Shown: positions 1,054 through 38,122 of the stretch, piece after piece
How positions within the stretch are numbered: position 1 is the first letter of the stretch
How the letters are laid out: every line of letters begins with the position of its first letter
Source of the DNA: a virus
Lineage: Duplodnaviria; Heunggongvirae; Uroviricota; Caudoviricetes
Virus record (IMG/VR): IMGVR_UViG_2734482790_000003
Length of the DNA: 38,122 nt
Reading direction: 5' to 3' (one strand)
Made by a program: the position numbers and the translations under genes
Notes under the pieces: model-generated
What the model was told of the DNA's origin: nothing
The model's input: the letters and a program-made list of their open reading frames with translations, nothing else
Database searches by the model: none

Positions 1054-1241
1054 AAAAAATGCCCTCCAATAGAGAGCATTTTTACTGTATGTATAACCAG
1101 TGTCAATGTATGAAATCCTGCGACCATACATCTCACTGAAGCCATAATGAAGTAGGCTATTCTTTTTGCTATGTGATCATGTAACTTTTGCGGTTAACCT
1201 GTGGCTCATTTTTATTTTAGGCGCAGATTTAAAAGCAAAAG

Positions 1242-1433: not shown

Positions 1434-1448
1434 AATTTCCTCCCGGTA

Positions 1449-2024
1449 CTATTTAACATACTTGACTGTTAAACTTATAATTTTACCAATTATTTCAATG
1501 TCTTCTATCTTACATTCAAAGGCTCTGTTTCCACCCTCGACGAAGATTCTTCCACCGGGTAAACGAGTAATGTCACGGATCGTTATTTCGCCATCAATAC
1601 TTATTACCCATTTACCATCACGTATATCATCAAATTCCTTATCACAAATAAATTCAGAATTATTATCTGTGATTACAAAAAGATTCTTGAATGCCGACGG
1701 TAGAAATTCTCTATCGAAAATATAAAAACCGTCTTCACACAAGGCCCCATCAGATAATACATATTTAGCAACTTCCATAGTATTTGTATTACCTGAAGTT
1801 TGCTTTGAACCATGCCCGGTTGTGAGCCAATTAAGCGAGGTGCCTGTTTCAAGGGCGCACTGGATTACCCATTCTGCTGGGAATGAGTCACGCATGTAGC
1901 GTGTGGCGAGTGTACTTTTAGAGATTCCTAAATGATCGCACAACGCCTGTCGAGTCTTGAATCCATAAGCTTCTACCATGCGCTCTATGGCGCCTCGTCC
2001 GCCTTTCTCCAAATTCATGGTCAC
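1449..2024 (-). CDS. cI: Immunity repressor CI, phage 186-type (191 aa)
   Basis: Length and sequence resemble 186 CI (N-terminal HTH ...AYGF...ALETG..L.WL.TG; C-terminal KLPGG..FVEGG..FEC). Position between int and the divergent apl. Confidence 0.8.
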   Translation of the reverse strand: MTMNLEKGGRGAIERMVEAYGFKTRQALCDHLGISKSTLATRYMRDSFPAEWVIQCALETGTSLNWLTTGHGSKQTSGNTNTMEVAKYVLSDGALCEDGFYIFDREFLPSAFKNLFVITDNNSEFICDKEFDDIRDGKWVISIDGEITIRDITRLPGGRIFVEGGNRAFECKIEDIEIIGKIISLTVKYVK

Positions 2025-2042
2025 TCCAAGTGAACTTTTATC

Positions 2043-2071
2043 TTGACGATTTCACCGTGCGATCGTATGTT
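2043..2071 (+). promoter_or_regulatory. Candidate lytic promoter pR in the cI-apl switch region
   Basis: TTGACG (2043-2048), 17-bp spacer, TATGTT (2066-2071), about 70 nt upstream of apl. Direct repeats CGATCGTAT / CGATCCGTAT, each containing a GATC, flank the -10 region. Confidence 0.4.
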
Positions 2072-2143
2072 TATGGTGTTCACAAAATACAAACGATCCG
2101 TATTCGTCCTGATTAATCATCATTAAACGAGGAATGTTGCATC

Positions 2144-2365
2144 ATGAGACCTAACATTTCAATCACTCTTACCACGCCTCATGTGACTATTGAACGCTAT
2201 AGCGAGCTGACAGGGCTATCCATCGATACCATCAATGACATGTTGGCTGATGGACGCCTTATCCGTCACCGTCTGCGCAAAGATAAAAAACGCGAAAAAG
2301 TGATGATCAACATAGCAGCAATGACCGTTGATGCGCTTTCAGAATGCAATCTAAACCTTAATTAG
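2144..2365 (+). CDS. apl: Apl/Cox-like excisionase and transcriptional repressor
   Basis: 73-aa basic protein, first gene of the rightward early operon, divergent from cI. This is the position and size of 186 Apl / P2 Cox. Confidence 0.7.
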
Positions 2366-2391
2366 TTCGATTCTGAAATACATCAGAGGCA

Positions 2392-2907
2392 TTGACCATG
2401 TTTGATTACCAAGTTTCCAAACATCCACATTTTGATGAAGCCTGTCGTGCATTTGCACTGCGCCACAATCTGGTGCAACTGGCAGAACGTGCAGGCATGA
2501 ATGTGCAGATTCTGCGGAACAAGCTGAACCCAGCTCAGCCTCATTTATTAACCGCACCAGAAATCTGGCTGCTTACCGATCTGACTGAAGATTCAACGCT
2601 GGTAGATGGTTTTCTGGCACAGATTCATTGTCTGCCATGTGTACCGATTAATGAGGTGGCAAAAGAGAAACTGCCACATTACGTCATGAGTGCAACCGCA
2701 GAGATCGGGCGTGTTGCTGCAGGTGCGGTGTCTGGCGATGTAAAAACCTGTGCCGGTCGTCGTGATGCTATTAGCAGCATTAACTCTGTAACACGACTGA
2801 TGGCGCTGGCGGCTGTTTCATTGCAGGCCCGTTTACAGGCTAATCCTGCGATGGCGAGTGCAGTTGATACCGTGACTGGCCTCGGTGCTTCATTTGGTTT
2901 GCTGTGA
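2392..2907 (+). CDS. cII: CII-like lysogeny establishment activator (186 CII family)
   Basis: 171 aa with strong resemblance to 186 CII ([19 protein letters not shown]...[19 protein letters not shown]...[25 protein letters not shown]). Confidence 0.85.
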
Positions 2908-2914
2908 GGTGCTT

Positions 2915-3115
2915 ATGCTGACGAAAGAACCATCATTTGCATCGCTGCTGGTTAAACAAAGCCCGGCAATGCATTACGGTCACGGCTGGATCATGGGGGA
3001 GGATGGTAAACGCTGGCATCCGTGCCGTTCACAAGATGAATTGCTGGCAGAACTATCTACGAAAAAACGGGGGAACAAATGGCTATTGAAGGCACTGCGG
3101 CGACTGTTCCATTAA
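2915..3115 (+). CDS. Early-region hypothetical protein (possible fil/dhr-position gene)
   Basis: ORF 2885..3115 trimmed to the internal Met, which has an SD (GAGGTG). Sits immediately after cII. Confidence 0.4.
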   Translation: MLTKEPSFASLLVKQSPAMHYGHGWIMGEDGKRWHPCRSQDELLAELSTKKRGNKWLLKALRRLFH

Positions 3116-3420
3116 GCCCCGGTGAACGCCTGAATGGACTTAATCACATTGCGGAGTTAAGGGCGAAAGTTTTTGGCCTGAATATTGAGTCAGAGCTTGA
3201 GCGGTTTATTAAAGATATGCGTGATTCACGGGATATTAATAGCGAACAAAATAAACGGGCACTGGCTGCCATATTCTTTATGGCAAAAATTCCAGCTGAA
3301 CGTCATAGCATCAGCATTAATGAGCTGACCACTGACGAAAAGCGGGAGTTGATTAAAGCAATGAATCATTTTCGTGCAGTGGTGAGCTTATTTCCCAGAC
3401 GGCTAACCATGCCGAATTAA
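3079..3420 (+). CDS. Early-region hypothetical protein (113 aa)
   Basis: ORF with SD-like GGGGGA upstream; same strand and operon position as the other early genes. Confidence 0.45.
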   Translation: MAIEGTAATVPLSPGERLNGLNHIAELRAKVFGLNIESELERFIKDMRDSRDINSEQNKRALAAIFFMAKIPAERHSISINELTTDEKRELIKAMNHFRAVVSLFPRRLTMPN

Positions 3421-3487
3421 CCAACTAATGAAATTAATGGCGTAAACCCGCCGGGCATCCCTTTATCTAAATTCAGGAGAATTGATT

Positions 3488-3721
3488 ATGCGTAATATTG
3501 AAACCCTCCCGACCAAAACCGGACCGGATGACGCAGGGCTTAATATTTTACTGACAGAGGCTCGTCTGGAAGAACGCCGGGCAAGGGCTGAAGCAATGGC
3601 AGCTCGCCTTGATAGCCTGGCGTGTCATATCACATCCCGCCAGCTAACCCACGTCGAAGCGGCAGAACTGCTTCGTATGACTGCTGAAGCAATCCAGAAC
3701 GAAGCGCAGGAGATCCACTAA
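3488..3721 (+). CDS. Early-region hypothetical protein (~77 aa)
   Basis: ORF 3482..3721; ATG at 3488 preceded by AGGAGA. Confidence 0.45.
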   Translation: MRNIETLPTKTGPDDAGLNILLTEARLEERRARAEAMAARLDSLACHITSRQLTHVEAAELLRMTAEAIQNEAQEIH

Positions 3722-3948
3722 TGGCTGATGCAATGGATCTCGTACAGCAGCGCGTTGAAGAAGAACGCCAACGCCATATCCGTGCTGCCCGTGCCAAAAC
3801 GCCGGGCGTGTCCCGCGTGCTTTGCATTGAGTGTGAAGCGCCAATTCCGCCAGCACGCCGCCGTGCCATTCCGGGTGTGCAGCTTTGCATTACCTGTCAG
3901 GAAATCGCAGAGCTGAAAGGCAAACATTACAACGGAGGTGCTGTATGA
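3721..3948 (+). CDS. TraR/DksA-family C4 zinc-finger protein
   Basis: 75 aa with CIECEAPIP...CITCQ (CxxC-N17-CxxC), typical of TraR/DksA-type phage proteins. Confidence 0.7.
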   Translation: MADAMDLVQQRVEEERQRHIRAARAKTPGVSRVLCIECEAPIPPARRRAIPGVQLCITCQEIAELKGKHYNGGAV

Positions 3949-4802
3949 GCACCATCCTGAAATGGGCGGGAAATAAAACTGCCATAATGTCCGAACTAAA
4001 AAAACATCTTCCTGCTGGCCCGCGACTGGTTGAACCTTTCGCGGGTTCCTGTGCTGTGATGATGGAGACGGATTATCCCAGCTATCTGGTTGCGGATATT
4101 AATCCTGATTTAATCAACCTCTATAAAAAGGTTGCCGCTGATTGTGAATCGTTTATATCTCGCGCCAGAGTTTTATTTGAGATCGCAAACAGGGAGGTGG
4201 CTTATTACAACATAAGGCAGGAGTTTAATTACTCAACTGAAATTACTGATTTCATGAAAGCGGTATATTTCCTGTATCTCAATCGTCACGGTTACCGTGG
4301 TTTATGTCGCTATAACAAGAGCGGGCATTTCAACATTCCCTACGGTAATTATAAAAATCCGTATTTCCCTGAAAAAGAAATTCGCGCATTTGCAGAAAAG
4401 GCCCAGCGAGCAACGTTTATCTGCGCCAGCTTTGATGAAACGCTGGCGATGTTGAAGGCGGGGGATGTGGTGTATTGCGATCCGCCGTATGACGGTACGT
4501 TTTCCGGCTATCACACTGACGGCTTCACTGAAGATGACCAGTATCACCTGGCATCTGTTCTTGAACATCGGTCATCAGAAGGACATCCGGTCATTGTTTC
4601 TAACAGTGACACATCCCTGATCCGTTCGCTGTATCGCAATTTTACTCACCACTACATCAAGGCAAAACGCAGCATCGGTGTGGCAGCTGGCGAGGGTAAA
4701 TCAGCAACAGAAATCATTGCTGTTTCCGGGCCGCGCTGCTGGGTGGGATTTGATTATTCGCGTGGCGTGGATAGTTCTGCCGTGTACGGAGTACGTGCAT
4801 GA
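3945..4802 (+). CDS. dam: DNA adenine methyltransferase (Dam-like, D12 class)
   Basis: N-terminal W.G.K and FAGSCAV (AdoMet motif I) plus DPPY catalytic motif ([12 protein letters not shown]). Its stop overlaps the gene A start (ATGA at 4799-4802). Confidence 0.85.
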
Positions 4803-7213
4803 GTCATGCCGATATGAACAACTGCTGCGGCTTTAACGAAGCTGCCGCATCGTTCTCATGGAACAGCTCGAAAAAGGCCATTAACCCTTATCTGGACCCG
4901 GTGGAAGTTGCGCCGGTTTCTACGCTTTCAAATCTGATCACTCTGTACGCTGCCGATAACGAGCAGGAACAGCTGCGCCGTGAGGCGCTGAGTGATCAGG
5001 TCTGGGAGCGTTATTTCTTTAATGAATCCCGTGATCCTGTCCAGCGCGAAATGGAACAGGATAAGCTCATTAGTCGGGCAAAGCTGGCGCATGAGCAGCA
5101 GCGTTTTAATCCGGATATGGTCATTCTGGCGGACGTCAACGCCCAGCCTTCCCATATCAGCAAGCCGCTGATGCAACGTATTGAATACTTCAGCAGCCTG
5201 GGCAGGCCAAAGGCTTATTCCCGCTATTTACGTGAGACGATTAAGCCATGTCTGGAACGACTGGAGCATGTACGCGACAGTCAGCTATCTGCATCTTTTC
5301 GCTTTATGGCAAGCCATGAAGGGCTGGACGGCCTGCTGATCCTGCCTGAAATGAGTCAGGATCAGGTGAAACGCCTGTCCACCCTGGTAGCTGCGCATAT
5401 GAGTATGTGCTTTGATGCCGCTTGTGGCGATTTGTATGCCACCGATGACGTTAAGCCAGAAGAAATCCGCAATACATGGGAAAGGGTGGCAGCGGAAACC
5501 CTGCGTCTGGATGTCATCCCGCCTGCGTTTGAGCAACTCCGTCGGAAAAGAAACCGCCGTAAACCCGTGCCCTATGAACTCATTCCGGGTTCGCTGGCGC
5601 GTATGTTGTGCGCCGACTGGTGGTATCGGAAATTATGGAAGATGCGTTGCGAATGGCGGGAAGAGCAGTTGCGTGCTGTCTGCCTTGTCAGCAAAAAAGC
5701 ATCTCCCTATGTCAGCTATGAAGCCGTGTTGCATAAACGTGAGCAGCGCCGTAAGTCGCTGGAGTTTTTCCGTTCTCATGAACTGGTGAACGAAGACGGC
5801 GACACGCTAGACATGGAGGATGTGGTAAACGCCAGCAGCAGCAACCCTGCGCATCGCCGCAATGAGATGATGGCCTGTGTTAAAGGTCTGGAGCTTATCG
5901 CGGAAATGCGCGGTGACTGCGCCGTTTTCTACACCATCACCTGTCCGTCACGTTTCCATTCCACGCTAAATAACGGCAGGCCCAACCCGACCTGGACAAA
6001 TGCGACGGTAAGACAAAGCAGCGATTATCTGGTCGGTATGTTTGCTGCATTTCGTAAGGCGATGCACAAAGCCGGGTTGCGCTGGTATGGCGTGCGGGTG
6101 GCTGAGCCGCATCACGACGGCACAGTTCACTGGCACCTGTTGTGTTTCATGCGCAAAAAAGACCGCCGCGCCATTACAGCATTGTTGCGTAAGTTTGCTA
6201 TCCGTGAAGACCGCGAGGAGCTGGGCAATAACACGGGGCCGCGCTTTAAGTCTGAGCTGATTAACCCGCGCAAAGGAACGCCGACAAGCTACATAGCGAA
6301 ATACATCAGTAAGAACATTGACGGGCGTGGTCTGGCTGGCGAGATCAGCAAGGAAACGGGTAAATCTCTGCGTGATAACGCTGAATACGTGAATGCCTGG
6401 GCGTCTTTGCATCGTGTTCAGCAATTCCGCTTCTTTGGCATTCCGGGGCGTCAGGCTTACCGTGAACTGCGATTGCTGGCTGGTCAGGCGGTAAGGCAAA
6501 AGGGGGACAAAAAAGCAGGTGCGCCGGTACTGGATAACCCGCGCCTTGATGCCATCCTGGCTGCTGCTGATGCTGGTTGTTTTGCCACCTACATCATGAA
6601 GCAGGGCGGCGTACTGGTTCCCCGTAAATATCACCTCATCAGAACCGCTTATGAAATCAACGAAGAGCCGACCGTCTATGGCGATCACGGCATTCGTATT
6701 TATGGCATCTGGTCACCCATTGCAGAGGGCAAGATCTGCACTCATGCAGTGAAGTGGAAAATGGTTCGTAAAGCCGTTGACGTTCAGGAGGCGGCAGCCG
6801 ACCAGGGCGCTTGCGCCCCTTGGACTCGTGGCAATAACTGTCCCCTTGCTGAAAATTTGAACCAACAAGGGAAAGACAAATCAGCTGATGGGGATACCAG
6901 AACGGATATCACCCGCATGGATGACAAGGAGTTGCACGATTACCTGCACAGTATGAGCAAAAAAGAGCGCCGGGAACTGGCAGCAAGGTTATGCCTGGTT
7001 AAACCGAAACGGCGTAAAGACTACAAACAGCGAATTACAGACCATCAGCGACAGCAGCTCGTCTATGAGCTGAAGTCCAGAGGATTTGATGGTAGCGAGA
7101 AAGAGGTCGATTTACTCCTTCGCGGCGGCAGTATTCCGTCAGGAGCAGGCCTGCGTATCTTCTATCGGAACCAGCGTTTGCAGGAAGATGATAAGTGGCG
7201 GGATCTGTATTAA
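4799..7213 (+). CDS. A: Replication initiation endonuclease (P2 gpA / 186 A family)
   Basis: 804-aa protein; position after the early genes; paired tyrosines in [11 protein letters not shown] typical of rolling-circle initiators. Confidence 0.85.
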
Positions 7214-7942: not shown

Positions 7943-9802
7943 TTAGTGAGGGCTGGTTATTACGTAGTCGCTCTGGTCATCCTCTCCCAGCCTCTCAGGT
8001 ATTAAATCGTTGAAGGAAATAGTATTACTCTTAGGCTTTTCTTCAATTGGAAGTTCAGCTACCCTTAATTTGAGCGGCATGGGGCAGACGATACCACTAA
8101 AAATACAGGTTCCTGTAGATAGCGTTGGAATCGACTCTTCAGTCAGTCGATCTATATATGATACTGATTTTTCAATTGCGTACAGATCATTCTGATTAAT
8201 AAGGCGATGAATAAAATAATTGTGTGCTTGGGATATGATTGTCGACGATATATCATTAGGGCGTTGACTGGAAATTGTGATAAAAACTCCAAATTTTCTC
8301 CCCTCCTTTATGATTTCCTCAAAAGTTTCCAGACGATAATCTCTCCAACTTTCCGTTTCCCGAAAAGAAGTATTAGACAAAATATTGTGGGCTTCATCTA
8401 TAATGATGTGCAGTGTAGATTTCTCTGTAGACATTTTCTTCATATTGTAAGCCCACTTGGCTATCAAAAGAGGAAGCGTTTTTTTCATGGTTATATTAAC
8501 CATATTTAGATTCACAACCGTGAAATTATGTTCACCCCAAAAATCAGACTGTCCGGAAGTATCAAATATTTTGGCTATATCTTTACGGTTAGCACTCATT
8601 CTATTTATAACTGGTGAAATATGTTCAGGGTTAGACTTGTTAGATAAATATTCCTGTATTAACTGTAAGTACATAAAGTCCAACAGTTCTTCAATCATAT
8701 CAGTTTTAAATGAAAAATTGCTTGCAAGACTGAATAGATAGGAGCGCTCAGTATCAGCTTCTGTATTGAAAATACTACCACCCCTCAATTTCCATTTATA
8801 TGCAGTTGAATGATACTCAAGATCAGATATAAGTTCTGGGTCATCTTTGAAAATTGGGCTAAGAAACTGATTTATAGTATCGCATTTGGGTTTGTCGCTA
8901 CTAAAGAGATTTTGTCTGACTTTTTTCTTCAGGATATTGCGCATAAACTCAAGAGGATTATCAGCGGTCATCACTTTCTTGCGAAACTCAAGAACTCTCT
9001 TCAGGAAAGGTTTCTGTGTTTTGTCTGTTGCATCGGTTAGAACTGAGAGCATATCATGCTCAAGTAGAACCTCTCTGGGTAGAGGAAGTTTGTCACCATT
9101 TGCATGGTGCGTGTTGAGATTATAAACCGTCTTCTCGTCAGTAATACAGCGTGGGGCAGTATATTCTCCATTAAAGTCGAATAGAATAAATTTGCATCTT
9201 TCACTAAAGTGGTTGCCGAGAATATGTTTAACTTGGGCAATACCTGCTTTGTATAGCGCGGCTAGGGTATTTGACTTTCCGCTGCCTGTATTACCGAAAA
9301 TGGCAATGTGGGAATTAATAAGACCATTGATTGGTAGTGCAATTTCAATATCTTCAAGATCTGTACGAGTAAACCTCATTACAGTTTCGTCTGCATCAGC
9401 TATCTGATGAACCGTCTGTATCATCTCTTCAGTTACCACGAAGACTTCATTGCCGATGAGAGGTAGTTCACGCGAACCACCAATGAAGCAACCAGTACGA
9501 TCAATGTAACCCGTAAGAGTAGAGGTCAGGTATCGCCGATATCGCCAGGCATCACTGCCGCTCCCAGCGAGATGTTTTTCCTCAATGATTCGTTCCGCTT
9601 CAACCTTGCCGATCAGGCTCATGAAACCTTTTTTGATCTCAATGAAGCTACCCACTGATACATTTCTTAGAACTTTTCCCTGATAAAACAAGTCACTGAG
9701 ATTTTTGTTTTTATCGACCAAAATTGTCACAGCGCGTCCAGAAACCTCACAGACTTCGCCTATACGGAGCACCGCTTCCTCTTCAGTAAAATGCCTGCTC
9801 AT
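7943..9802 (-). CDS. herA: HerA/FtsK-like ATPase, partner of the SIR2 protein (SIR2-HerA defence system)
   Basis: Walker A GNTGSGKSNT and Walker B/DEAH-like IIIDEAH. Start taken at MSRHFTEE with GGGAGG SD, overlapping the SIR2 stop (ATGA). AT-rich composition. Confidence 0.75.
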   Translation of the reverse strand: MSRHFTEEEAVLRIGEVCEVSGRAVTILVDKNKNLSDLFYQGKVLRNVSVGSFIEIKKGFMSLIGKVEAERIIEEKHLAGSGSDAWRYRRYLTSTLTGYIDRTGCFIGGSRELPLIGNEVFVVTEEMIQTVHQIADADETVMRFTRTDLEDIEIALPINGLINSHIAIFGNTGSGKSNTLAALYKAGIAQVKHILGNHFSERCKFILFDFNGEYTAPRCITDEKTVYNLNTHHANGDKLPLPREVLLEHDMLSVLTDATDKTQKPFLKRVLEFRKKVMTADNPLEFMRNILKKKVRQNLFSSDKPKCDTINQFLSPIFKDDPELISDLEYHSTAYKWKLRGGSIFNTEADTERSYLFSLASNFSFKTDMIEELLDFMYLQLIQEYLSNKSNPEHISPVINRMSANRKDIAKIFDTSGQSDFWGEHNFTVVNLNMVNITMKKTLPLLIAKWAYNMKKMSTEKSTLHIIIDEAHNILSNTSFRETESWRDYRLETFEEIIKEGRKFGVFITISSQRPNDISSTIISQAHNYFIHRLINQNDLYAIEKSVSYIDRLTEESIPTLSTGTCIFSGIVCPMPLKLRVAELPIEEKPKSNTISFNDLIPERLGEDDQSDYVITSPH

Positions 9803-21945: not shown

Positions 21946-22524
21946 ATGAACGCACAATTAACCGAAATCATGCGCCTTATCACCAACCTGATTCGCACAG
22001 GTGTAGTCACCGAAGTGGACAGGGCAAACTGGCTGTGTCGGGTGAAAACTGGCGACCTCGAAACCAACTGGATTAACTGGCTGACACTGCGCGCGGGCAA
22101 ATCGCGCACCTGGTGGAAACCGTCTGTGGGTGAGCAGGTTGTGCTGTTCAGCCTTGGCGGCAATCTGGAAACCGCGTTTGCCCTGCCTGCGGTCTACTCA
22201 AACCAGTTTCCGCCACCTTCAGGCTCTGAGGACGGCAACGTGACGGAATACCCGGACGGCGGCTGGTTTGAATACGAACCCGCCACCGGGCGCTGGTATG
22301 TCAGGGGCATCAAATCAATGGTCATTGAGGCCGCTGACAATATCACCCTGAAAACCAGTGAGTTTGTGCTGGAGGCTGACCGCACGCGTATTAACAGCGA
22401 AGTGGTGATCAATGGTGGCGTTACCCAGGGCGGCGGAGCGATGAGCTCTAACGGGATTGTGGTTGATGCGCATCAGCATACTGGCGTCCTGAAAGGCGGC
22501 GATACAACCGGAGGCCCGGTATGA
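21946..22524 (+). CDS. V: Baseplate spike/assembly protein (P2 gpV family)
   Basis: 192 aa; position and size; Gly-rich C-terminus. Confidence 0.8.
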   Translation: MNAQLTEIMRLITNLIRTGVVTEVDRANWLCRVKTGDLETNWINWLTLRAGKSRTWWKPSVGEQVVLFSLGGNLETAFALPAVYSNQFPPPSGSEDGNVTEYPDGGWFEYEPATGRWYVRGIKSMVIEAADNITLKTSEFVLEADRTRINSEVVINGGVTQGGGAMSSNGIVVDAHQHTGVLKGGDTTGGPV

Positions 22525-22880
22525 CGCTTTATAGCGGGATGAACAATACCAGCGGCAAAGTCATTACTGATATTGATCATCTGCACCAGTCGGTGCGGGA
22601 CATTCTGCTGACACCGCAGGGTAGCCGCATTGCCCGCCGGGAATATGGTTCCCTCCTGTCGGTTTTAATAGATCAGCCACAAAATCCGGCATTACGCCTG
22701 CAGGTCATGTCGGCAGTGTATGTGGCGCTGAGTCGCTGGGAGCCACGGCTGACGCTGGATTCCATCACCATCAACAGCAACTTTGACGGTTCTATGGTGG
22801 TGGAGCTGACCGGGCGGCGGAATAACGGTGTGCCTGTGTCCCTTTCCGTATCAACAGGAGCAGAGAATGGCAGTGATTGA
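22521..22880 (+). CDS. W: Baseplate wedge protein (P2 gpW / gp25-like)
   Basis: 119 aa; position and size. Confidence 0.8.
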   Translation: MTLYSGMNNTSGKVITDIDHLHQSVRDILLTPQGSRIARREYGSLLSVLIDQPQNPALRLQVMSAVYVALSRWEPRLTLDSITINSNFDGSMVVELTGRRNNGVPVSLSVSTGAENGSD

Positions 22881-23775
22881 CCTTTCGCAGTTGCCTGCAC
22901 CGCAGATTGTGGATGTGCCGGACTTTGAGACGCTGCTTGCCGAACGCAAGGCCCAATTTGTTGCGCTTCATCCGAAAGATGAGCAGGAAGCAGTGATCCG
23001 CACGCTGGAACTGGAATCTGAACCCGTCACCAAATTGCTGCAGGAGAACGCTTACCGTGAGTTGCTTCTGCGCCAGCGCATTAACGAAGCCGTGCAGGCT
23101 GTGATGGTGGCTTACGCGATGGGCAGCGATCTTGACCAGCTCGCTGCCAACTACAACGTGAAACGCTTGACGGTGACGCCTGCTGATAATGACGCTGTGC
23201 CGCCCGTTGCAGCTGTGATGGAAAGCGATGAAGCGTTACGCCTGCGTGTGCCTGCAGCCTTTGAAGGGCTTTCAGTTGCGGGGCCAACTGCAGCTTATGA
23301 ATTTCATGCCCGAAGCGCCGACGGTCGGGTGGCGGATGCCAGTGCAACCAGCCCGGCACCTGCAGAGGTGGTGCTGACTGTCCTTAGCCGCGAAGGCGAT
23401 GGAACTGCAGAAAAAGACCTGCTGGACGTGGTGGAAAAAGCTCTGAACAGTGAGAACGTCCGCCCGGTGGCTGACCGTCTTACGGTTCGCAGCGCAGAAA
23501 TCATCCCGTATCGCGTGGAAGCCACCATTTTTCTTTATCCGGGACCGGAAGCAGAGCCGGTAATGGCAGCGGCAAAAGCCAGCCTGCAGAAGTACATCGC
23601 CAGTCAGACGCGTCTTGGTCGGGATATTCGCCGTAGCGCCATCTTTGCCGCCCTGCATGTTGAGGGTGTGCAGCGTGTGGAGCTGGCTTCTCCTCTGGCG
23701 GATGTGGTCCTGAACAAAACACAGGCGGCATCATGTACGCAGTGGAGCGTAACCAACGGAGGAACGGATGAATAG
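22867..23775 (+). CDS. J: Baseplate protein (P2 gpJ family)
   Basis: ORF 22828..23775 trimmed to MAVIDLSQLPAPQIVDVPDFE..., which matches the P2 gpJ N-terminus. Confidence 0.85.
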   Translation: MAVIDLSQLPAPQIVDVPDFETLLAERKAQFVALHPKDEQEAVIRTLELESEPVTKLLQENAYRELLLRQRINEAVQAVMVAYAMGSDLDQLAANYNVKRLTVTPADNDAVPPVAAVMESDEALRLRVPAAFEGLSVAGPTAAYEFHARSADGRVADASATSPAPAEVVLTVLSREGDGTAEKDLLDVVEKALNSENVRPVADRLTVRSAEIIPYRVEATIFLYPGPEAEPVMAAAKASLQKYIASQTRLGRDIRRSAIFAALHVEGVQRVELASPLADVVLNKTQAASCTQWSVTNGGTDE

Positions 23776-24373
23776 TCTGCTGCCACCGGGTTCAACACCA
23801 CTGGAGCGCCGACTGGCGCAAACCTGCAGCGGGATTTCTGATCTGCAGGTGCCGCTTCGTGACTTGTGGAATCCGGCAACCTGTCCGGTCAGTTTCCTGC
23901 CTTATCTCGCCTGGGCGTTCTCTGTGGATCGCTGGGACGAGGGCTGGACAGAAAGCGTCAAGCGCCAGGTGGTGAAGGATGCTTTTTATATTCATCAGCA
24001 TAAAGGGACCACCAGTGCCGTGCGGCGGGTGGTGGAGCCGTTCGGCTTTCTGATCCGCATTATTGAGTGGTGGCAGACCGGAGAGGCACCGGGCACGTTT
24101 CGCCTGGATATCGGCGTGCAGGACCAGGGCATCACTGAAGATACCTATCTGGAACTTGAGCGACTGATAAGCGATGCTAAACCATGTAGCCGCCACATGA
24201 TCGGCATGTCCATCAATCTGCAGACCAGCGGTCCATATTGGGTGGGGGCTGCAAGCTATCTTGGCGAAGAAATCACGATCTATCCGTATATCAACGAAAC
24301 AATTATTTCCGGCGGCACCGTGCATGAAGGCGGGGCGGTCCATGTTATTGACACAATGAGAGTGAATCCATGA
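23768..24373 (+). CDS. I: Baseplate protein (P2 gpI family)
   Basis: 201 aa; position between J and the tail fibre gene. Confidence 0.8.
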   Translation: MNSLLPPGSTPLERRLAQTCSGISDLQVPLRDLWNPATCPVSFLPYLAWAFSVDRWDEGWTESVKRQVVKDAFYIHQHKGTTSAVRRVVEPFGFLIRIIEWWQTGEAPGTFRLDIGVQDQGITEDTYLELERLISDAKPCSRHMIGMSINLQTSGPYWVGAASYLGEEITIYPYINETIISGGTVHEGGAVHVIDTMRVNP

Positions 24374-25956
24374 GCACAAAATTTTATACCCTGCTGACGG
24401 ATATTGGCGCGGCGAAACTTGCCAGCGCCGCCGCGCTCGGTGTGCCGTTAAAACTTACCCATATGGCGGTCGGCGATGGCGGCGGAACATTGCCAACGCC
24501 GGACGCAAAGCAGACTGCACTGGTAAATGAGAAACGCCGGGCTGCGCTGAATATGCTCTATATCGACCCGCAGAACAGCAGCCAGATTATTGCCGAACAG
24601 GTGATCCCTGAAAACGAGGGCGGTTGGTGGATCCGTGAAGTGGGCCTGTTTGATGAGTCCGGGGCATTGATTGCCGTGGGCAACTGCCCGGAAAGCTATA
24701 AGCCGCAACTGGCTGAAGGCAGCGGGCGCACCCAGACCGTGCGCATGGTACTGATAACCAGCAGCACGGACAATATCACCCTGAAAATAGACCCTGCTGT
24801 AGTGCTGGCAACCCGCAAGTATGTGGATGACAAAGCACTGGAGTTGAAGGTGTACGTGGATGACCTGATGGCAAAACATCTTGCCGCACCGGACCCGCAT
24901 TCACAGTATGCACCCAAAGAAAGTCCGACGTTTACCGGAACCCCCAAAGCGCCAACGCCAGCAGCAGGGAATAACACCACGCAGATTGCGACCACCGAGT
25001 TTGTTCAGGCGGCTCTGACGGCTCTTATTAATGGTGCGCCAGCCACGCTGGACACGCTGAAAGAAATAGCCGCAGCCATTAACAATGATCCAAAATTCAG
25101 TACCACCATTAACAATGCGCTGGCACTGAAAGCGCCGCTGTCGAGTCCGGCACTCACCGGAACGCCAACCGCACCTACTGCGGCACAGTCGGTCAACAAT
25201 ACACAAATTGCCACCACGGCATTTGTGAAATCGGCGATTGCGGCAATGGTGGGTTCTGCACCTGCGGCACTGGATACACTGAACGAACTGGCGGCGGCGC
25301 TGGGGAATGACCCGAACTTTGCCACGACAATGCTTAATGCACTGGCAGGTAAACAACCGCTGGACAATACGCTGACTAATTTGAGTGGAAAGGATGTAAC
25401 TGGTCTTCTCACATACCTTGGTTTGGGAGAAGGTTCGGCATTACCCGTTGGCGTGCCTGTTCCGTGGCCTTCCGCCACTCCGCCAACAGGCTGGCTGAAA
25501 TGCAACGGTGCCGCTTTTTCTGCTGAAGAATACCCGGAACTGGCAAAGGCTTATCCGACAAATAAATTGCCTGATTTACGTGGTGAGTTTATTCGTGGCT
25601 GGGATGACGGGCGTGGTGTGGATGCGGGACGTGCCTTGCTAAGTCTTCAGGATGACTCTTTTGAAGCGCACAGGCATGAGTCCTTTTTTTACGCGGGTAT
25701 TTCTCGCAATGAAATACCATTAAAAAATCTTCCAAGTTCAGACGAGATGCTGACTTTAAGTTCTACAACTAATGCCTTGTCCCCGGACGGTATTGATGCC
25801 ACTAATTCGTTAATTGGTAATGATGATTACAACTGTCTGATTGAAGGAAATAAAAATAACAAACGAACAGCGACGGGGTTGAGTACCAGTATTGTCGGTG
25901 CAGCAGAGACACGCCCACGTAATATTTCATTTAATTACATTGTGAGGGCTGCATGA
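24370..25956 (+). CDS. H: Tail fibre protein (P2 gpH family); C-terminal ~175 aa lie inside an invertible segment
   Basis: 528 aa; conserved N-terminus; two tandem ~70-aa repeats (..TGTP.APT.A..NNTTQIATT.FV..A......GAPA.LDTL.E.AAA..NDP.F..T..NALA.K.PL). Confidence 0.85.
   Translation: MSTKFYTLLTDIGAAKLASAAALGVPLKLTHMAVGDGGGTLPTPDAKQTALVNEKRRAALNMLYIDPQNSSQIIAEQVIPENEGGWWIREVGLFDESGALIAVGNCPESYKPQLAEGSGRTQTVRMVLITSSTDNITLKIDPAVVLATRKYVDDKALELKVYVDDLMAKHLAAPDPHSQYAPKESPTFTGTPKAPTPAAGNNTTQIATTEFVQAALTALINGAPATLDTLKEIAAAINNDPKFSTTINNALALKAPLSSPALTGTPTAPTAAQSVNNTQIATTAFVKSAIAAMVGSAPAALDTLNELAAALGNDPNFATTMLNALAGKQPLDNTLTNLSGKDVTGLLTYLGLGEGSALPVGVPVPWPSATPPTGWLKCNGAAFSAEEYPELAKAYPTNKLPDLRGEFIRGWDDGRGVDAGRALLSLQDDSFEAHRHESFFYAGISRNEIPLKNLPSSDEMLTLSSTTNALSPDGIDATNSLIGNDDYNCLIEGNKNNKRTATGLSTSIVGAAETRPRNISFNYIVRAA
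25418..25432. repeat. Left inverted repeat of the invertible tail-fibre segment (candidate invertase crossover site)
   Basis: TTGGTTTGGGAGAAG inside H (encodes G-L-G-E). The exact reverse complement is present at 27330-27344. Confidence 0.65.
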
Positions 25957-26558
25957 TGTATAACGCCATCTTGAATAGTAAATTTATTGCCACAAAGGCA
26001 GGAGAGATTACCGTTTATAACTATGACAGTGAGACACGGGAGTATATTTCTGCATCAACTGAATATCTTGCTGTGGGTGTCGGTATCCCTGCATATTCCT
26101 GTTTAGATGCTCCTGGCACACATAAGGCTGGTTATGCAATCTGCCGTTCGGCAGATTTAAACTCATGGGAATATGTGCCAGACCATCGCGGTGAAATCAT
26201 CTATAGCACCGAAACAGGAGAATCGAAAGAAATCACAGCTCCGGGTGATTATCCTGAAAATACAACCACTATCGCCCCGTTAACGCCATACGATGAATGG
26301 GATGGTGAGAAATGGGTAACAGATACTGTGGCACAGCATAGCGCCGCAGTAGGCGCGGCAGAAGCACAGCGTCAGTCACTGATTGATACTGCAATGGCTT
26401 CCATTAGTCTGATTCAGCTGAAATTGCAGGCCGGACGGAATCTGACGCAGGCAGAAACCGCCCGACTTAACGCTGCGCTGGATTACATTGACGCGGTGAC
26501 GGCAACAGATACCAGCACCGCGCCGGATGTCATCTGGCCTGAACTGCCGGAGGCGTAG
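25953..26558 (+). CDS. G: Tail fibre assembly chaperone (P2 gpG family)
   Basis: 201 aa; immediately downstream of H; conserved C-terminal region (..LDY.DA....DTS.APD..WP..P). Confidence 0.8.
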   Translation: MMYNAILNSKFIATKAGEITVYNYDSETREYISASTEYLAVGVGIPAYSCLDAPGTHKAGYAICRSADLNSWEYVPDHRGEIIYSTETGESKEITAPGDYPENTTTIAPLTPYDEWDGEKWVTDTVAQHSAAVGAAEAQRQSLIDTAMASISLIQLKLQAGRNLTQAETARLNAALDYIDAVTATDTSTAPDVIWPELPEA

Positions 26559-26970
26559 GCCATTCAATATCTGGCGCACCGGAAGTATCGACCAGTTCCA
26601 GTGCGTCCAGATAATCCAGCCACAAATTATATTGCGCCAGTTCCTCACCTTTCAGACGACCAATAGCCGCTTTACCAGGCCATTGTTTACTGTTCATATA
26701 ATCGTTGGCCTGATTAATCAGTTGCTGCTTTTCCTGTTCGGCTGCAGCAATCTGTTCCTCATGTGTTGGTGGTGGAATTTCAGACCATGCAGGAAAACCA
26801 TTTTCTCCAGCGATACGGATTTTTCCTTTCGGCGGTAATCCGGAAAACGCAATATACACTTGCTCATCAACTTCAACAGCATCATCTGGCCATGAGTCAG
26901 CTTGAGTGTAATCCTCTTTCATCTCCAGCGGATAGAAAGAGTTTGTAGTCGCGGAATATATGTAATTCAT
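26530..26970 (-). CDS. Alternative tail fibre assembly chaperone (G'), opposite orientation
   Basis: 146 aa. C-terminus (NLWLDYLDALELVDTSGAPDIEWPTPP) parallels the gpG C-terminus. Convergent with G inside the invertible segment. Confidence 0.7.
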   Translation of the reverse strand: MNYIYSATTNSFYPLEMKEDYTQADSWPDDAVEVDEQVYIAFSGLPPKGKIRIAGENGFPAWSEIPPPTHEEQIAAAEQEKQQLINQANDYMNSKQWPGKAAIGRLKGEELAQYNLWLDYLDALELVDTSGAPDIEWPTPPAVQAR

Positions 26971-26991
26971 TTTTCACTCCATATAGCTAAA

Positions 26992-27329
26992 TTAACAGCC
27001 TAACGCTAAAAATGAAGCGCCGAGGCCAGGAGTACTGGCTCTGGATATAAATTTAACCGGGTCGGGACTAAAACCTGCACAGGCAATATAACCAACAGCC
27101 CCGCTATCTGGTGTGTAGTCTTGTGAGACCAAAACACGCAGACATCTGTTTGGAAATGCAATCGGGAAATGGGTTACTACATCCTGTGCAATGCCTGGTG
27201 CGCCGATTGAGCCCCACTGAAGAATAAAACCTGATGGTAATTTTTGATATCCAGTACCTGAAACAGAAAGCGTGAAGCTACCCATATCAGGTATCTGATT
27301 CGCCCCTGTCCCTACATTCCTTTTAGCCG
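26992..27329 (-). CDS. Alternative tail-fibre C-terminal exon (no start of its own; would fuse to the H constant part after inversion)
   Basis: Minus-strand reading frame continues in frame from the right inverted repeat (..[11 protein letters not shown]...). The Met start in the ORF track (27384) lies outside the segment and is not meaningful. Confidence 0.5.
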
Positions 27330-27344
27330 CTTCTCCCAAACCAA
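27330..27344. repeat. Right inverted repeat of the invertible tail-fibre segment
   Basis: CTTCTCCCAAACCAA, reverse complement of 25418-25432. On the minus strand it encodes the same G-L-G-E in frame with the alternative exon. Confidence 0.65.
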
Positions 27345-27411
27345 CGTTTATGAAAATGCAGAGATAATGGCTAACTGGCATCATCCACGGTTTTTATTCA
27401 GGGGATTGATC

Positions 27412-27978
27412 ATGCTTATTGGCTATGTACGCGTGTCAACAAATGACCAGAACACCGATTTGCAACGTAATGCACTGAACTGCGCGGGATGTGAGCGGAT
27501 TTTTGAGGATAAAATCAGTGGCACTAAGTCCGACAGACCGGGGCTTAAAAAACTGCTCAGGACACTATCGGCAGGAGACACTCTGGTTGTCTGGAAGCTG
27601 GACAGGTTGGGGCGCAGTATGCGGCATCTTGTTACGCTGATAGAAGAGTTGCGCCAGCGTGGTGTGAATTTCAGAAGCCTGACTGACAGTATTGATACCA
27701 GTACCCCAATGGGCCGTTTCTTTTTTCATGTCATGGGTGCCCTGGCTGAAATGGAACGCGAACTGATAGTTGAACGTACCATGGCAGGGCTGGCTGCAGC
27801 TCGTGCCAAAGGCAGAGTAGGTGGACGCCGTCCTAAGTTGACCACCGAACAGTGGGCACAGATTGGGCGTTTACTCGAGGCCGGAGAATCAAGACAGCGT
27901 ATTGCACTGATTTTTGATGTAGGCGTTTCTACCATTTATAGAAAATTTCCGGCAAATAAGAGCAATGAATCCCCCTGA
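27412..27978 (+). CDS. Site-specific DNA invertase (Gin/Pin/Cin/Hin serine recombinase family)
   Basis: MLIGYVRVSTNDQNTDLQ... with catalytic-Ser motif (YVRVST) and C-terminal HTH; ORF 27367 trimmed to Met 27412. Adjacent to the inverted-repeat-bounded segment. Confidence 0.85.
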   Translation: MLIGYVRVSTNDQNTDLQRNALNCAGCERIFEDKISGTKSDRPGLKKLLRTLSAGDTLVVWKLDRLGRSMRHLVTLIEELRQRGVNFRSLTDSIDTSTPMGRFFFHVMGALAEMERELIVERTMAGLAAARAKGRVGGRRPKLTTEQWAQIGRLLEAGESRQRIALIFDVGVSTIYRKFPANKSNESP

Positions 27979-28026
27979 ATCAGCATTATTTTGATTATCC
28001 ATGCAAGTAGACAAATACCGTCATTT

Positions 28027-28044
28027 TGTGTGAATAACGACACA
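28027..28044. promoter_or_regulatory. Late-promoter activator dyad (TGT-N12-ACA) for the FI operon
   Basis: TTGTGTGAATAACGACACAA, perfect 6-bp arms, centred about 85 bp upstream of the FI ATG. Confidence 0.5.
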
Positions 28045-28120
28045 ACTGCGCTTAGCTGTTTGTCAGGCACAATCACTTCAACATAGGGCGAAGCCTAATC
28101 CAATCAGGAGGTTCGCCACT

Positions 28121-29293
28121 ATGGCTCAGGATTACCACCACGGGGTGCGCGTTGTTGAAGTCAACGAAGGCACCCGATCTATTACCACGGTGAGCACCGC
28201 CATCGTGGGTATGGTCTGCACGGGCGATGATGCCGATGCAAAAATGTTTCCTCTTAATAAACCCGTGCTGATCACTGATGTGCTGACTGCCAGCGGTAAA
28301 GCGGGTGAGTCAGGTACTCTGGCCCGTTCGCTGGATGCCATCGCTGACCAGGCAAAACCCGTGACCATTGTTGTGCGTGTGCCGCAGGGTGAAACGGAAG
28401 ACGAAACCACGACCAATATCATCGGCGCAGTGACTGCTGAAGGTAAAAAAACAGGTATGAAAGCCCTGTTATCTGCCCAGTCACAGCTCGGCGTTAAACC
28501 GCGCATTCTCGGCGTGCCAGGCCACGACACCAAGGCGGTAGCTACTGAGTTGCTAAGCGTGGCGCAAAGCCTGCGTGGATTTGCTTACCTGTCAGCGTAT
28601 GGCTGCAAGACAGTGCAGGAGGCGATCACTTACCGCGAAAACTTCAGCCAGCGCGAAGGGATGCTGATCTGGCCTGACTTTACTGGCTGGGACACAGTGC
28701 TGAATGCCGAAGCAACGGCATATGCCACCGCCCGTGCGCTTGGTCTGCGCGCTAAAATTGACGAGCAGACCGGATGGCACAAAAGCCTGTCCAACGTGGG
28801 CGTGAACGGTGTCACCGGAATTTCTGCAGATGTGTTCTGGGATCTGCAGGACCCGGCAACCGATGCAGGTCTGCTGAACCAGAACGACGTCACCACGCTT
28901 GTGCGTAAAGACGGTTTCCGCTTCTGGGGTTCCCGCTGCCTGAGTGATGACCCGCTCTTTGCCTTCGAAAACTACACCCGCACGGCGCAGGTGCTGATGG
29001 ACACGATGGCAGAAGCACACATGTGGGCGGTGGATAAACCGCTTAACCCGTCGCTGGCCCGCGACATTATCGAAGGTATCCGCGCCAAAATGCGCAGCCT
29101 GGTCAGTCAGGGCTATCTCATTGGTGGTGATTGCTGGCTGGATGAGTCGGTGAACGACAAAGACACGCTGAAAGCCGGAAAACTCACCATCGACTACGAC
29201 TACACGCCAGTGCCGCCACTTGAAAACCTGATGCTGCGTCAGCGCATCACCGATCAGTACCTGGTGAATTTCGCCAGCCAGGTCAGCGCGTAA
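28121..29293 (+). CDS. FI: Tail sheath protein (P2 gpFI family)
   Basis: 390 aa; position and size; SD AGGAGG. Confidence 0.85.
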
Positions 29294-35048: not shown

Positions 35049-35267
35049 ATGATGATTTGCCCACTGTGTGGAAGTGCCGCCCATACTCGCAGCAGTTTTC
35101 AGGTATCTTCATTGACCAAAGAGCGTTACAACCAGTGCCAGAACATTAACTGCAGCCATACTTTTGTTACCCATGAAACTTTTGTTCGTTCGATTGCAAC
35201 GCCAAAAGAGTCAAATCCGGTTCAGCCGCATCCAATGAAATCAGGACAGGTGGCGCTCTCTCTTTGA
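35049..35267 (+). CDS. ogr: Late transcription activator, Ogr/Delta/B zinc-finger family
   Basis: CPLCGSAAHTR...ERYNQCQNINCSHTF matches the Ogr CxxC-N22-CxxxxC zinc finger; ORF 35016 trimmed to an internal Met. Confidence 0.85.
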   Translation: MMICPLCGSAAHTRSSFQVSSLTKERYNQCQNINCSHTFVTHETFVRSIATPKESNPVQPHPMKSGQVALSL

Positions 35268-35353
35268 CGCTGCCGCCATTTTGTCGCCATCGTTAAAAAA
35301 CAGTGTTTCTAACATCATGATTTTAAACAGCTTAAATTTTAGGCAACAAAAAA

Positions 35354-35390
35354 CCCATCAACCTTGAACCGAAATGGCGGGGTTGATGGG
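35354..35390 (-). terminator. Candidate rho-independent terminator downstream of ybjL (within the prophage-host junction region)
   Basis: Inverted repeat CCCATCAACC...GGTTGATGGG followed on the minus strand by a T tract. Confidence 0.4.
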
Positions 35391-35502
35391 CTCCACAAAA
35401 TGGGGACATCAAAGAAAAGCAGTGGCACTAATTAAGACTGATGCCCTGCGGAAAAGTTCTGCGGTTGTGCAAAAAAATTTCATTTTCAGGGCAACTTCAG
35501 TT

Positions 35503-37188
35503 TTATCCTAATCCTGGCCATACCATGACGATGATTGTCCCTGCCAGCGTCAGCAGGACGTTGGCGATTGCATAGGTGCCCGCATAGCCCAGCGCCGGGA
35601 TGTTACTGCGAGCTGTATCACTGATGATCTCCATTGCCGGCGCGCAGGTACGTGCGCCCATCATTGCGCCGAACAACAGCGCGCGGTTCATTCGCAATAC
35701 ATAAGCACCGAACAAGAAACAGATAACCACGGGCACCAGACTGACAATCAATCCGGCAATCAACATCTGACCGCCAATCGCGCCCAGGCCGTTATTAATA
35801 CCGCTACCGGCGCTCAGACCAACGCCTGCCATAAACACCATCAAGCCGAACTCTTTCACCATGCTTAATGCACCCTGCGGAATGTAACCGAAGGTCGGGT
35901 GGTTAGCACGCATAAAGCCCAGCATAATTCCGGCGAATAACAACCCGGCAGCGTTCCCCATGCCGAAACTGAATGTGCTGAACTGGAAGGTGATCATCCC
36001 GATCATCAGCCCAATAACAAAGAAGGCGCAAAATGCCAGCAGGTCAGTGACCTGGCTGTGAATCGAGATAAAGCCGATGCGATCGGCGATGGTTTTTACG
36101 CGACGGGCATCACCGCTGACTTGTAAAACGTCACCTTTGTTAAGCACGACGTTGTCATCTATCGGCATCTCAATCTGGCTACGAATGACGCGGTTAAGGA
36201 AGCAACCGTGATCGGTCAACTTCAGTTGTGCGAGACGTTTACCTACAGCGTTATGGTTTTTAACGACCACTTCTTCAGTGACGATACGCATGTCGAGAAG
36301 GTCACGATCGAAAACTTCTTTACCGTTACGGAAGCTGGGATCGAGTCGGGCATGGGCGTCGGGATAGCCTACCAACGCTATTTCATCGCCCATTTGTAGC
36401 ACGGCATCACCGTCTGGATTTGCCAGAATCCCGTTACGTCGAATACGTTCAATGTAGCAGCCGGTTTGTCGATAAATACCCAGTTCACGCAGATTTTTGC
36501 CGTCGGTCCAGGCCACCAGCTCCGGGCCGACGCGATAGGCGCGGATCACCGGTAAATAAACCTTACGGTTGGCATCAGTGTCCAGGCCACGTTCGCGGGC
36601 GATTTGCTGGGCGCTGGTCTGTAAGTCCTGATGCTGCAATTTCGGCAAGTAACGCGCACCAACAATCAAACTCACCAGACCGATTAAATAGGTTAAGGCA
36701 TACCCGAGGCTCAGATTATCCAGTGCCAGTGAGAGCTGCCTGCTTTCCATGCCGGAATGACGCAGTGTATCGCCAGCACCGACCAGAACCGGTGTCGACG
36801 TCATAGAGCCTGCTAACATACCGGCCGTCAGGCCAATATCCCAGCCAAACAGCTTACCTAACCCTAAGGCGATCACCAGCGCACTGCCAACCATCACCAG
36901 TGCTAACATTAGGTAATTTTTCCCATCGCGAAAAAAAATGGAAAAAAAGTTCGGTCCGGCTTCAACCCCAACACAGAAAATAAACAGCATAAAGCCAAGA
37001 TTAAGCGCATCGGTGTTAATGCTGAAATGTTGTTGGCCTAATAACAGCGATACGACTAAAACGCCAATGGAATTACCCAGTTGGATCGAACCAAGTCGTA
37101 ACTTTCCGAGACATAGCCCAAGCGCGAGGACCACAAATAATAACAGAATGTAATTCCCATTTAACAATTCGGCGACGTTTATATTCAC
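35503..37188 (-). CDS. ybjL: Putative transport protein YbjL (host gene)
   Basis: 561-aa multi-pass membrane protein with duplicated TM domains around a central cytoplasmic region; recognised as E. coli YbjL. Confidence 0.8.
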
Positions 37189-37457
37189 GGAGGCTAACTT
37201 CTTGTTTACTAGTAAGCTGTTGAAAGAAATGGTAATTTACGATAATGTTTTTTACCAGAATTCAGGGCGCAGATTCATTCAGCGCACCTAAACGATAGTA
37301 AAGTAACAATATATTTTACTAGTGTAATCACATTAGGTATCAACGGCTATATGAATTGCGTTGGCCTATATTAGCATGGAATGCGAAGCGGCTTTATCTT
37401 ACTGAACGCCACACTGGCGAAAAATGTGTTCGATAGACGCAGTGTCAGGAGGAACGA

Positions 37458-37835
37458 GTGAAACATAAACAACGTTGGGCGGGGGCAATCTGCTGTTTTG
37501 TCCTCTTCATTGTGGTGTGCCTTTTTCTGGCGACGCACATGAAAGGCGCTTTTCGGGCTGCCGGGCATCCTGAAATCGGCTTGCTATTTTTCATTCTTCC
37601 TGGAGCAGTCGCCAGCTTCTTTTCACAGCGTAGAGAAGTCCTGAAACCTCTGTTTGGCGCAATGCTGGCGGCACCCTGTTCGATGCTCATTATGCGGCTG
37701 TTTTTTTCACCGACGCGCTCATTCTGGCAAGAGCTGGCATGGTTATTAAGTGCGGTGTTCTGGTGTGCGCTGGGGGCACTGTGTTTCTTATTTATCAGTA
37801 GTTTGTTTAAACCACAGCACAGAAAAAATCAGTAA
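37458..37835 (+). CDS. ybjM: Inner membrane protein YbjM (host gene)
   Basis: 125-aa membrane protein, divergent from ybjL, in conserved E. coli synteny with grxA. Confidence 0.75.
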   Translation: MKHKQRWAGAICCFVLFIVVCLFLATHMKGAFRAAGHPEIGLLFFILPGAVASFFSQRREVLKPLFGAMLAAPCSMLIMRLFFSPTRSFWQELAWLLSAVFWCALGALCFLFISSLFKPQHRKNQ

Positions 37836-37864
37836 AGCCCTCAACGCGAGGGCTTGTCAGACGA

Positions 37865-38122
37865 TCAGGCGTCCAGATTTTCTTTCACCCATGCAGCAAA
37901 ATCGGTATAGCCGCCGATATGTTGCTGATCGACAAAAATCTGCGGCACGGTTTCTACGGGTTTACCTGCCTTTTGTTGTAGATCTTCTTTAGTGATCCCT
38001 TCCGCACGAATATCTACATAGTGATACTGAAAATCATCGTGTTCATTGCTCAATTTCTCAGCCAGATCTTTTGCACGCACACAGTAAGGGCAACCCGGAC
38101 GACCAAAAATAACGGTTTGCAT
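37865..38122 (-). CDS. grxA: Glutaredoxin 1 (host gene)
   Basis: 85 aa with CPYC active site (FGRPGCPYCVRAK); start codon at the window edge. Confidence 0.9.
   Translation of the reverse strand: MQTVIFGRPGCPYCVRAKDLAEKLSNEHDDFQYHYVDIRAEGITKEDLQQKAGKPVETVPQIFVDQQHIGGYTDFAAWVKENLDA

Follow-up and report, generated by a model that had tools for sequence, protein, structure and literature searches.

The 38,122-base stretch of tailed-phage DNA analysed here (IMG/VR virus record IMGVR_UViG_2734482790_000003, hereafter the window) very probably carries a site-specific inversion system of the Din family (Hin/Gin/Cin/Pin) by which a P2-like (Peduoviridae) prophage of Escherichia coli switches its tail fibre. 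The invertible segment measures 1,927 bp with the two core dinucleotides counted in (25418-27344), and E. coli GmM062 has it in the opposite orientation at 100% identity. It is bounded by two crossover sites in inverted orientation, the left one within the tail-fibre gene H and the right one adjoining a gene for a serine invertase. Systems of this kind have long been textbook knowledge, and mechanistically this copy is nothing new.

Crossover sites and the two orientations

The sequence TTGGTTTGGGAGAAG occurs at 25418-25432 on the plus strand, and its exact reverse complement at 27330-27344. This perfect 15-bp inverted repeat had been pointed out in an earlier note made from the letters of the window, and it is indeed singular there: a search allowing up to two mismatches returned exactly these two matches, against a mean of 0.08 in dinucleotide-preserving shuffles and two or more in 0 of 100 shuffles. 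A repeat finder lengthened the pair to 27 nucleotides at 85% complementarity (25406-25432 and 27330-27356). The repeat was confirmed as part of a recombination site, of which the 15-mer is only the inner half and core. Each complete site spans 26 bp and is built as a 12-bp half-site, a 2-bp core and a second 12-bp half-site. The left site, within the coding sequence of H, lies at 25406-25431 (TTCTCACATACC-TT-GGTTTGGGAGAA, core dinucleotide 25418-25419), and the right one at 27331-27356 (TTCTCCCAAACC-AA-CGTTTATGAAAA, core dinucleotide 27343-27344). The two are in inverted orientation with matching cores, and the perfect 15-mer corresponds to the core, the common inner half-site and one additional base. 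The outer half-sites of the left and right sites are unlike each other, as is usual for such crossover sites.

On sequence grounds, the pair is of the hix/gix/pix type. A scan of the window with a Din-site consensus (TTNTCNNAAACCNNGGTTTNNGANAA, 18 positions, threshold 16) found exactly two sites, each matching at 17/18 positions, and the identical scan of Mu and P1 recovered the annotated gix and cix sites, and no others, at the boundaries of the G-segment and C-segment. The comparison with gix and cix that the earlier note had suggested thus ends with a single consensus recovering the sites of all three phages. The right site is identical at 26/26 positions to the site adjoining pinE in the e14 element of E. 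coli K-12, and the left site shares its inner half and core with the left pix site of e14. A chance repeat was ruled out by the shuffles and by this 26/26 identity. A third site, as in multiple-inversion systems, was also looked for: a fuzzy pix-site search and the 18-position consensus scan gave two sites only in the window, an earlier and looser regular-expression scan having been discarded for its many false matches. Shufflons have at least three crossover sites and more than two arrangements, and the classical ones use the tyrosine recombinase Rci; the window, with two sites only and a serine invertase, is not one of them.

Both orientations occur in nature. The stretch 24900-28050 was inverted in silico, and the resulting allele was searched in complete E. 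coli genomes. It was found in GmM062 over all 3,151 nucleotides in a single piece, at 100.0% identity. Between the GmM062 prophage and the window there are 2 mismatches in the left flank (20.5 kb) and 0 in the right flank (10.8 kb); the segment between the flanks is identical but inverted, and the alignment breakpoints overlap exactly within the 15-bp repeat (25418-25432). Because the flanks hold 2 mismatches in 31 kb and the segment none, the flip is younger than nearly every point mutation, and the comparison shows that flipping at these sites occurs on a time scale shorter than that of point mutation. The near-isogenic yak isolates NQ3 (5,196,957 bp) and LS4 (5,196,956 bp) share a related prophage; its flanks are 100% identical between the two, and at this locus the flip of the segment is their sole difference. 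Among complete E. coli genomes at a coverage of at least 80%, the native arrangement was counted 29 times and the inverted one 28 times. The two orientations, which the earlier note had named as the check on its proposal, were thus found by genome comparison, and the switch is evidently real and active.

Gene H, its alternative tips and the invertase

In its present state, gene H (24370-25956, plus strand) encodes 528 amino acids (aa), with an N-terminal Phage_tail_fib domain and a Collar domain at residues 361-408. Its constant part (Sc; 24370-25417, plus strand; Phage_tail_fib, E = 5.8e-65) lies outside the segment, and the frame runs on through the left site into tip A, a StfE-like variable fibre tip now fused to H (25420-25956, plus strand; Pfam Collar, 1.3e-14). 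The gene for chaperone A follows (25953-26558, plus strand; Pfam Caudo_TAP, 4.3e-31); its product is TfaE-like, it stands in place of P2 gene G, and it is annotated tfaE in GmM062. The minus strand holds the alternative: tip B with a gp53-like C-terminal domain (26992-27342; Pfam Gp53-like_C, 4.5e-15), a promoterless 3' gene part, and the TfaP-like chaperone B (26530-26970; Pfam Caudo_TAP, 2e-38), both silent in the present orientation. The two modules are therefore convergent on opposite strands, each tip being followed by its own Caudo_TAP chaperone. The Pfam domains agree with the layout given in the earlier note, namely a segment of about 1.9 kb with the 3' part of H and a chaperone on the plus strand and an alternative tip and chaperone on the minus strand. 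The alternative C-terminus claimed for the minus strand is present as well, although the open reading frame (ORF) that bears it (26992-27384, minus strand; Gp53-like_C) had to be trimmed to the promoterless part 26992-27342, which alone lies within the segment; its extension beyond the right site is due to chance.

Chaperones A and B are 41% identical to each other, a similarity limited to the C-terminal ~70 aa. Their genes overlap by 29 nucleotides at the 3' ends (26530-26558), and the same overlap is seen in e14 (tfaP/tfaE) and in phage 500465-1. An 18-nucleotide imperfect inverted repeat (26477-26494 and 26603-26620) is also present in the 3' parts of both genes.

Both junctions encode ..L/V-G-L-G-E.. 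in frame, and the expectation that the G-L-G-E at the two repeats would allow fusion in either state was borne out. In the present orientation H reads LGLGEGSALP.. through the left site (junction ..TYLGLGEGSALP.., 528 aa); exchange in silico at the core dinucleotides leaves the frame of H open in both states, the inverted one giving 466 aa. This alternative fusion is annotated as a single 1,401-nucleotide 'phage tail protein' gene in GmM062, and LS4 is annotated in the same way. The left site being within H, inversion therefore changes which 3' part is joined to the constant codons.

The invertase gene (27412-27978, plus strand) encodes 188 aa with the Pfam domains Resolvase (PF00239, 9e-53) and HTH_7 (PF02796, 1.8e-15). 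The earlier note had placed a serine invertase directly outside the right repeat; family and position stand, but its start at 27367, that of the ORF as called (27367-27978, plus strand; Resolvase and HTH_7), has to be moved to the ATG at 27412, where the alignment with PinE, Gin and Cin begins and where RefSeq starts the identical GmM062 gene. The protein is 85% identical to PinE of e14, 74% to Gin of Mu and 77% to Cin of P1, and its best solved relative is the Gin crystal structure 3uj3 (E = 1.1e-93). It has the N-terminal resolvase domain, the serine nucleophile and the C-terminal helix-turn-helix of small serine recombinases, and residues R7, S9, D64, R65 and R68 are invariant across the window protein, PinE, Gin and Cin. 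In Hin, Q151, R154 and L155 and the basic residues 47, 48 and 51, the latter in helix B, make Fis/enhancer contacts and are conserved only in Fis/enhancer-dependent invertases (McLean et al., PMC3798978). All equivalents are present here (Q150, R153, L154, K46, K47 and R50), the +1 offset of the Hin numbering having been checked against the match to 1hcr.

Members of the Din family require Fis, HU and negative supercoiling, carry out inversion alone, with a defined topology, and use a recombinational enhancer with a pair of Fis sites, situated in cis roughly 100 bp away from a crossover site. Inversion here would be expected to depend likewise on Fis and an enhancer, for which we propose 27430-27501 at the 5' end of the invertase gene. 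This stretch aligns ungapped to the annotated P1 enhancer (cin nucleotides 19-90). Eight invertase genes with 68-83% nucleotide identity to that of the window were compared at codons with an invariant amino acid, and mean pairwise synonymous-codon identity was 0.65 in codons 7-30 against 0.48 in the remainder (one-sided Mann-Whitney p = 0.005), weak evidence for a second constraint at the DNA level, which this excess would fit. The block TCAACAAATGA is invariant among the compared invertase genes, and the centre of the right site lies ~96 bp from the first (proximal) candidate Fis site, the corresponding distance for hin being ~100 bp. Assignment of the Fis sites by consensus was abandoned, the candidate 15-mers near 27440 and 27489 fitting only loosely, and the P1 alignment and synonymous conservation were used instead.

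We thus envisage that dimers of the 188-aa invertase would bind the two inverted 26-bp sites, and that synapsis would take place, most likely on a Fis-bound enhancer within the first ~90 nucleotides of the invertase gene. Cuts at the core dinucleotides 25418-25419 and 27343-27344, followed by rotation, would then flip the 1,927-bp segment. H is transcribed with the P2 late operon V-W-J-I-H, and inversion would swap the 3' part joined to its constant 349 codons: either the Collar/StfE-like tip and then the TfaE-like chaperone, or the gp53-like tip and then the TfaP-like chaperone. A population of lysogens would in this manner release two kinds of virion, presumably recognising different receptors. 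That the two orientations differ in host range is what the precedent of Mu and P1 and the unrelated tip domains (Collar versus gp53-like_C) would predict.

Relation to e14, Mu, P1 and P2-like prophages

One of the closest counterparts, with the same gene plan, is the P segment with pinE in e14, a cryptic prophage of E. coli K-12 (Plasterk and van de Putte, 1985, as cited in PMC4272514). In both, a StfE-type tip and TfaE converge on a module made of a gp53-like tip and a TfaP-type chaperone, and the site and the invertase ATG are equally far apart (67-68 nucleotides). Tip A is 55% identical to the variable part of StfE and nearly identical across the first ~80 aa, chaperone A is 88.5% identical to TfaE, and chaperone B is 60% identical to TfaP across 102 aa; tip B is of the same gp53-like type as StfP of K-12, with just 27% identity. 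By this sequence likeness, the cassette of the window is a homologue of the e14 P segment. The setting differs, in that e14 has a short StfP constant part in a defective element with a Mu-type baseplate, whereas the window has a P2-type H in an apparently complete P2-like prophage.

An e14-like element of enterotoxigenic E. coli H10407 carries the cassette at 96.3% identity, without gaps, from 25407 to 27873 (within the invertase gene). The baseplate of this element is Mu-type (DNA circularisation protein, gp46, gp47 and YmfQ), and the homology begins where the left crossover site has its outer boundary. Because it starts there, and because one IMG/VR locus (L012, below) suggests that the same invertase can recombine quasi-sites elsewhere in the prophage, the stretch from the sites to the invertase could be read as a portable module that moves between unrelated tail-fibre genes by invertase recombination at the crossover site, although we consider this doubtful.

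Mu Gin and P1 Cin represent a common mechanism class with the window, with the same 12-2-12 site architecture and a constant Sc joined to one of two Sv/U modules, and in P1 the enhancer is annotated in the 5' end of cin, matching the place of the putative enhancer here. The segment is shorter in the window (1.9 kb, versus 3.0 kb in Mu and 4.2 kb in P1); the core of Mu gix is TC/GA as opposed to TT/AA, and in P1 the invertase gene is found on the opposite side, its 3' end being the one where cixL lies. No similarity was found between the tips of the window and Mu S/S', and in the comparison of the chaperones with U/U' only the C-terminus of chaperone B resembled Mu U', weakly (32%).

Similarity to the P2 reference covers J, I, H and FI, residues 1-332 of H being 54% identical to residues 1-329 of gpH. 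The P2 backbone resumes at the tail sheath gene FI (28121-29293, plus strand; Pfam Phage_sheath domains; 69% DNA identity to P2 FI). Because P2 similarity stops between H residue 332 and FI, the cassette replaces the tip of H, G and Z/fun, in agreement with the Z/fun position that the earlier note had assigned to it. Membership among P2-like phages is supported by the RefSeq gene order of GmM062 (V-W-J-I-H-(G)-...-FI-FII-E-T-U-D-ogr, with P2-family capsid and terminase genes), and by Pfam Tail_P2_I upstream of H with the sheath downstream. A close relative, phage 500465-1 (NC_049342), is classified in Peduoviridae and was deposited with a 'DNA invertase' annotation. It has the same two sites, with H 94.8% and the invertase region 97.5% identical to the window, and shares the segment in part only, as a mosaic.

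Inversion has been demonstrated by whole-genome sequencing and polymerase chain reaction for e14 as well as for two P2-like prophages of enteropathogenic E. coli (EPEC) E2348/69 (PMC4272514), and a survey of P2-like phages describes tail-fibre swapping at the Z/fun hotspot and notes invertases with inverted neighbouring genes (bioRxiv 10.1101/2024.10.15.618418). The EPEC prophages, compared by their published description, and 500465-1 share the backbone and the position between H and FI with the window; one EPEC prophage has 3-4 sites, as against two here.

We further examined 80 IMG/VR loci with invertases 85-100% identical to that of the window. Two sites 1.1-2.0 kb apart were found in 51 of them, with segment homology to the window on either strand, and the right site, where recognised, begins 80-81 nucleotides upstream of the invertase ATG. 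Four of the 80 loci (L033, L035, L062 and L069) have 3-4 sites, and such relatives may yield more than two fibre variants; three others (L016, L038 and L044) have one or no recognisable crossover site and are possibly locked.

An unusual arrangement was observed in L012 (IMGVR_UViG_2554235297_000013, 1-5000), whose invertase is 100% identical to that of the window. A block corresponding to V-W-J-I-H(constant), window positions 21946-25424, is inverted relative to the invertase and flanked by two hybrid 26-bp sites with TA cores, TTATGCTAAACG-TA-GGTATGTGAGAA and TTCCAAGTAACC-TA-CGTTTATGAAAA. The TTATGCTAAACG half is a quasi-site within an upstream virion-morphogenesis gene (at the position of P2 gene S). 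L012 lacks the normal segment, its H is truncated, and next to the invertase lies an AT-rich ORF of 393 aa (3702-4883). This may reflect aberrant recombination at a secondary site, or misassembly.

Alternative explanations, prophage context and implications

Several points weigh against an active switch driven by the adjacent invertase. The evidence for both orientations is a comparison among genomes, not of reads within one culture of the strain from which the window comes. Natural flips could have been catalysed in trans, since Din invertases cross-complement and PinQ inverts the e14 segment (PMC12529663). The putative enhancer has a distal candidate Fis site that reads GCGGGATG in the window, where e14, Mu, P1 and four other invertase genes have GCAGGATG, a change that could weaken it. 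The synonymous-codon test uses eight related sequences, and the 5' ends of genes are constrained for other reasons too.

The changed Fis site would also suit a fossil switch, in which repeats and invertase are remnants, the segment is now fixed and the orientations in the databases are old events, as would the apparently locked loci with one or no recognisable site (L016, L038 and L044). We regard this as very improbable: the intact invertase ORF has lost no catalytic or Fis-contact residue, neither 26-bp site is damaged, the right one being identical to the active e14 site, and the near-identical flanks around the flipped segments of GmM062 and of NQ3/LS4 speak against old events. Still less credence is due to inversion by RecA-dependent homologous recombination between the repeats, or to an assembly error, in place of the adjacent invertase. 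Nothing specific favours either beyond the perfection of the repeats across 15 bp, a length that is far under what is normally required for efficient RecA recombination, and what the repeats form are genuine crossover sites of the Din type, next to a Din invertase. The inverted form is moreover present in complete, independently assembled genomes in nearly equal numbers to the native one, and a repeat of 15-26 bp is too short to mislead long-read assemblers. A different Pin-type enzyme may have catalysed the flip in trans, which would still be the same mechanism; the invertase of the window, rather than a co-resident one, is the probable catalyst.

It could also be supposed that the element switches a promoter in the manner of Hin, driving genes outside the segment in one orientation, or that it serves defence at the level of the lysogen, a fibre variant blocking other phages, and is not a virion host-range switch. 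Against the first stand the left site, which lies inside the coding sequence of H, and the segment, which consists of 3' gene parts and chaperone genes only; promoter-like sites in 25300-28200 are no commoner than in shuffles (3 versus 4.9 expected), and terminator-like sites were likewise not above shuffles. The second gains from the StfE/TfaE-like character of tip A and chaperone A, as inversion of the e14 P segment by PinQ is reported to give rise to StfE2, a fibre variant that prevents T2 from adsorbing (PMC12529663). H, however, is one gene of what looks like a complete P2-type late operon, whose expression in a lysogen would not be expected from P2 biology, and a defensive side-effect would add to a virion switch without replacing it. 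We therefore hold either possibility to be a very poor substitute for a virion tail-fibre switch, while the StfE-like variant may, by analogy with StfE2 of e14, also protect the lysogen against other phages. Overall, the interpretation offered in the earlier note is supported, with minor corrections.

The window covers most of the prophage. At its left end are an integrase (1-1131, minus strand; the ORF reaches the window edge) and a CI-type repressor (1449-2024, minus strand), followed by a Dam-like D12 methyltransferase at 3885-4802. At the right end, ogr is the last gene of the identical prophage of GmM062, and beyond it come the host genes ybjL, ybjM and grxA; the right chromosome junction therefore lies inside the window (35049-38122). 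A SIR2-HerA anti-phage defence pair on the minus strand (HerA-like ATPase, 7943-9802, PADLOC HerA 5.9e-267; SIR2 protein, 9799-10842, PADLOC SIR2 6.1e-211) is located in a known P2 defence hotspot, with the replication gene (4799-7213) on one side and the portal gene (13124-14164) on the other. The same hotspot holds a HipA-like kinase (11438-12352) and a HIRAN-domain protein (12349-13089), both on the plus strand and matching the PADLOC candidate PDC-M03A/B (2.1e-122 and 3.4e-93). Downstream of the invertase gene, TGTGTGAATAACGACACA at 28027-28044 forms a TGT-N12-ACA dyad ~80 nucleotides upstream of the sheath gene. We take this dyad to be of the type bound by Ogr-type activators at P2 late promoters, and it suggests an F-operon late promoter directly after the invertase gene.

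For annotation, the minus-strand ORF called a 'gp53-like domain-containing protein' is in fact the silent alternative 3' end of H. The true fibre gene differs by orientation, and any host-range prediction for this prophage must weigh two receptor-binding tips. The switch opens no new question; it adds one more case of bet-hedging variation in host range and of the modular exchange of receptor-binding cassettes at the Z/fun hotspot of P2.

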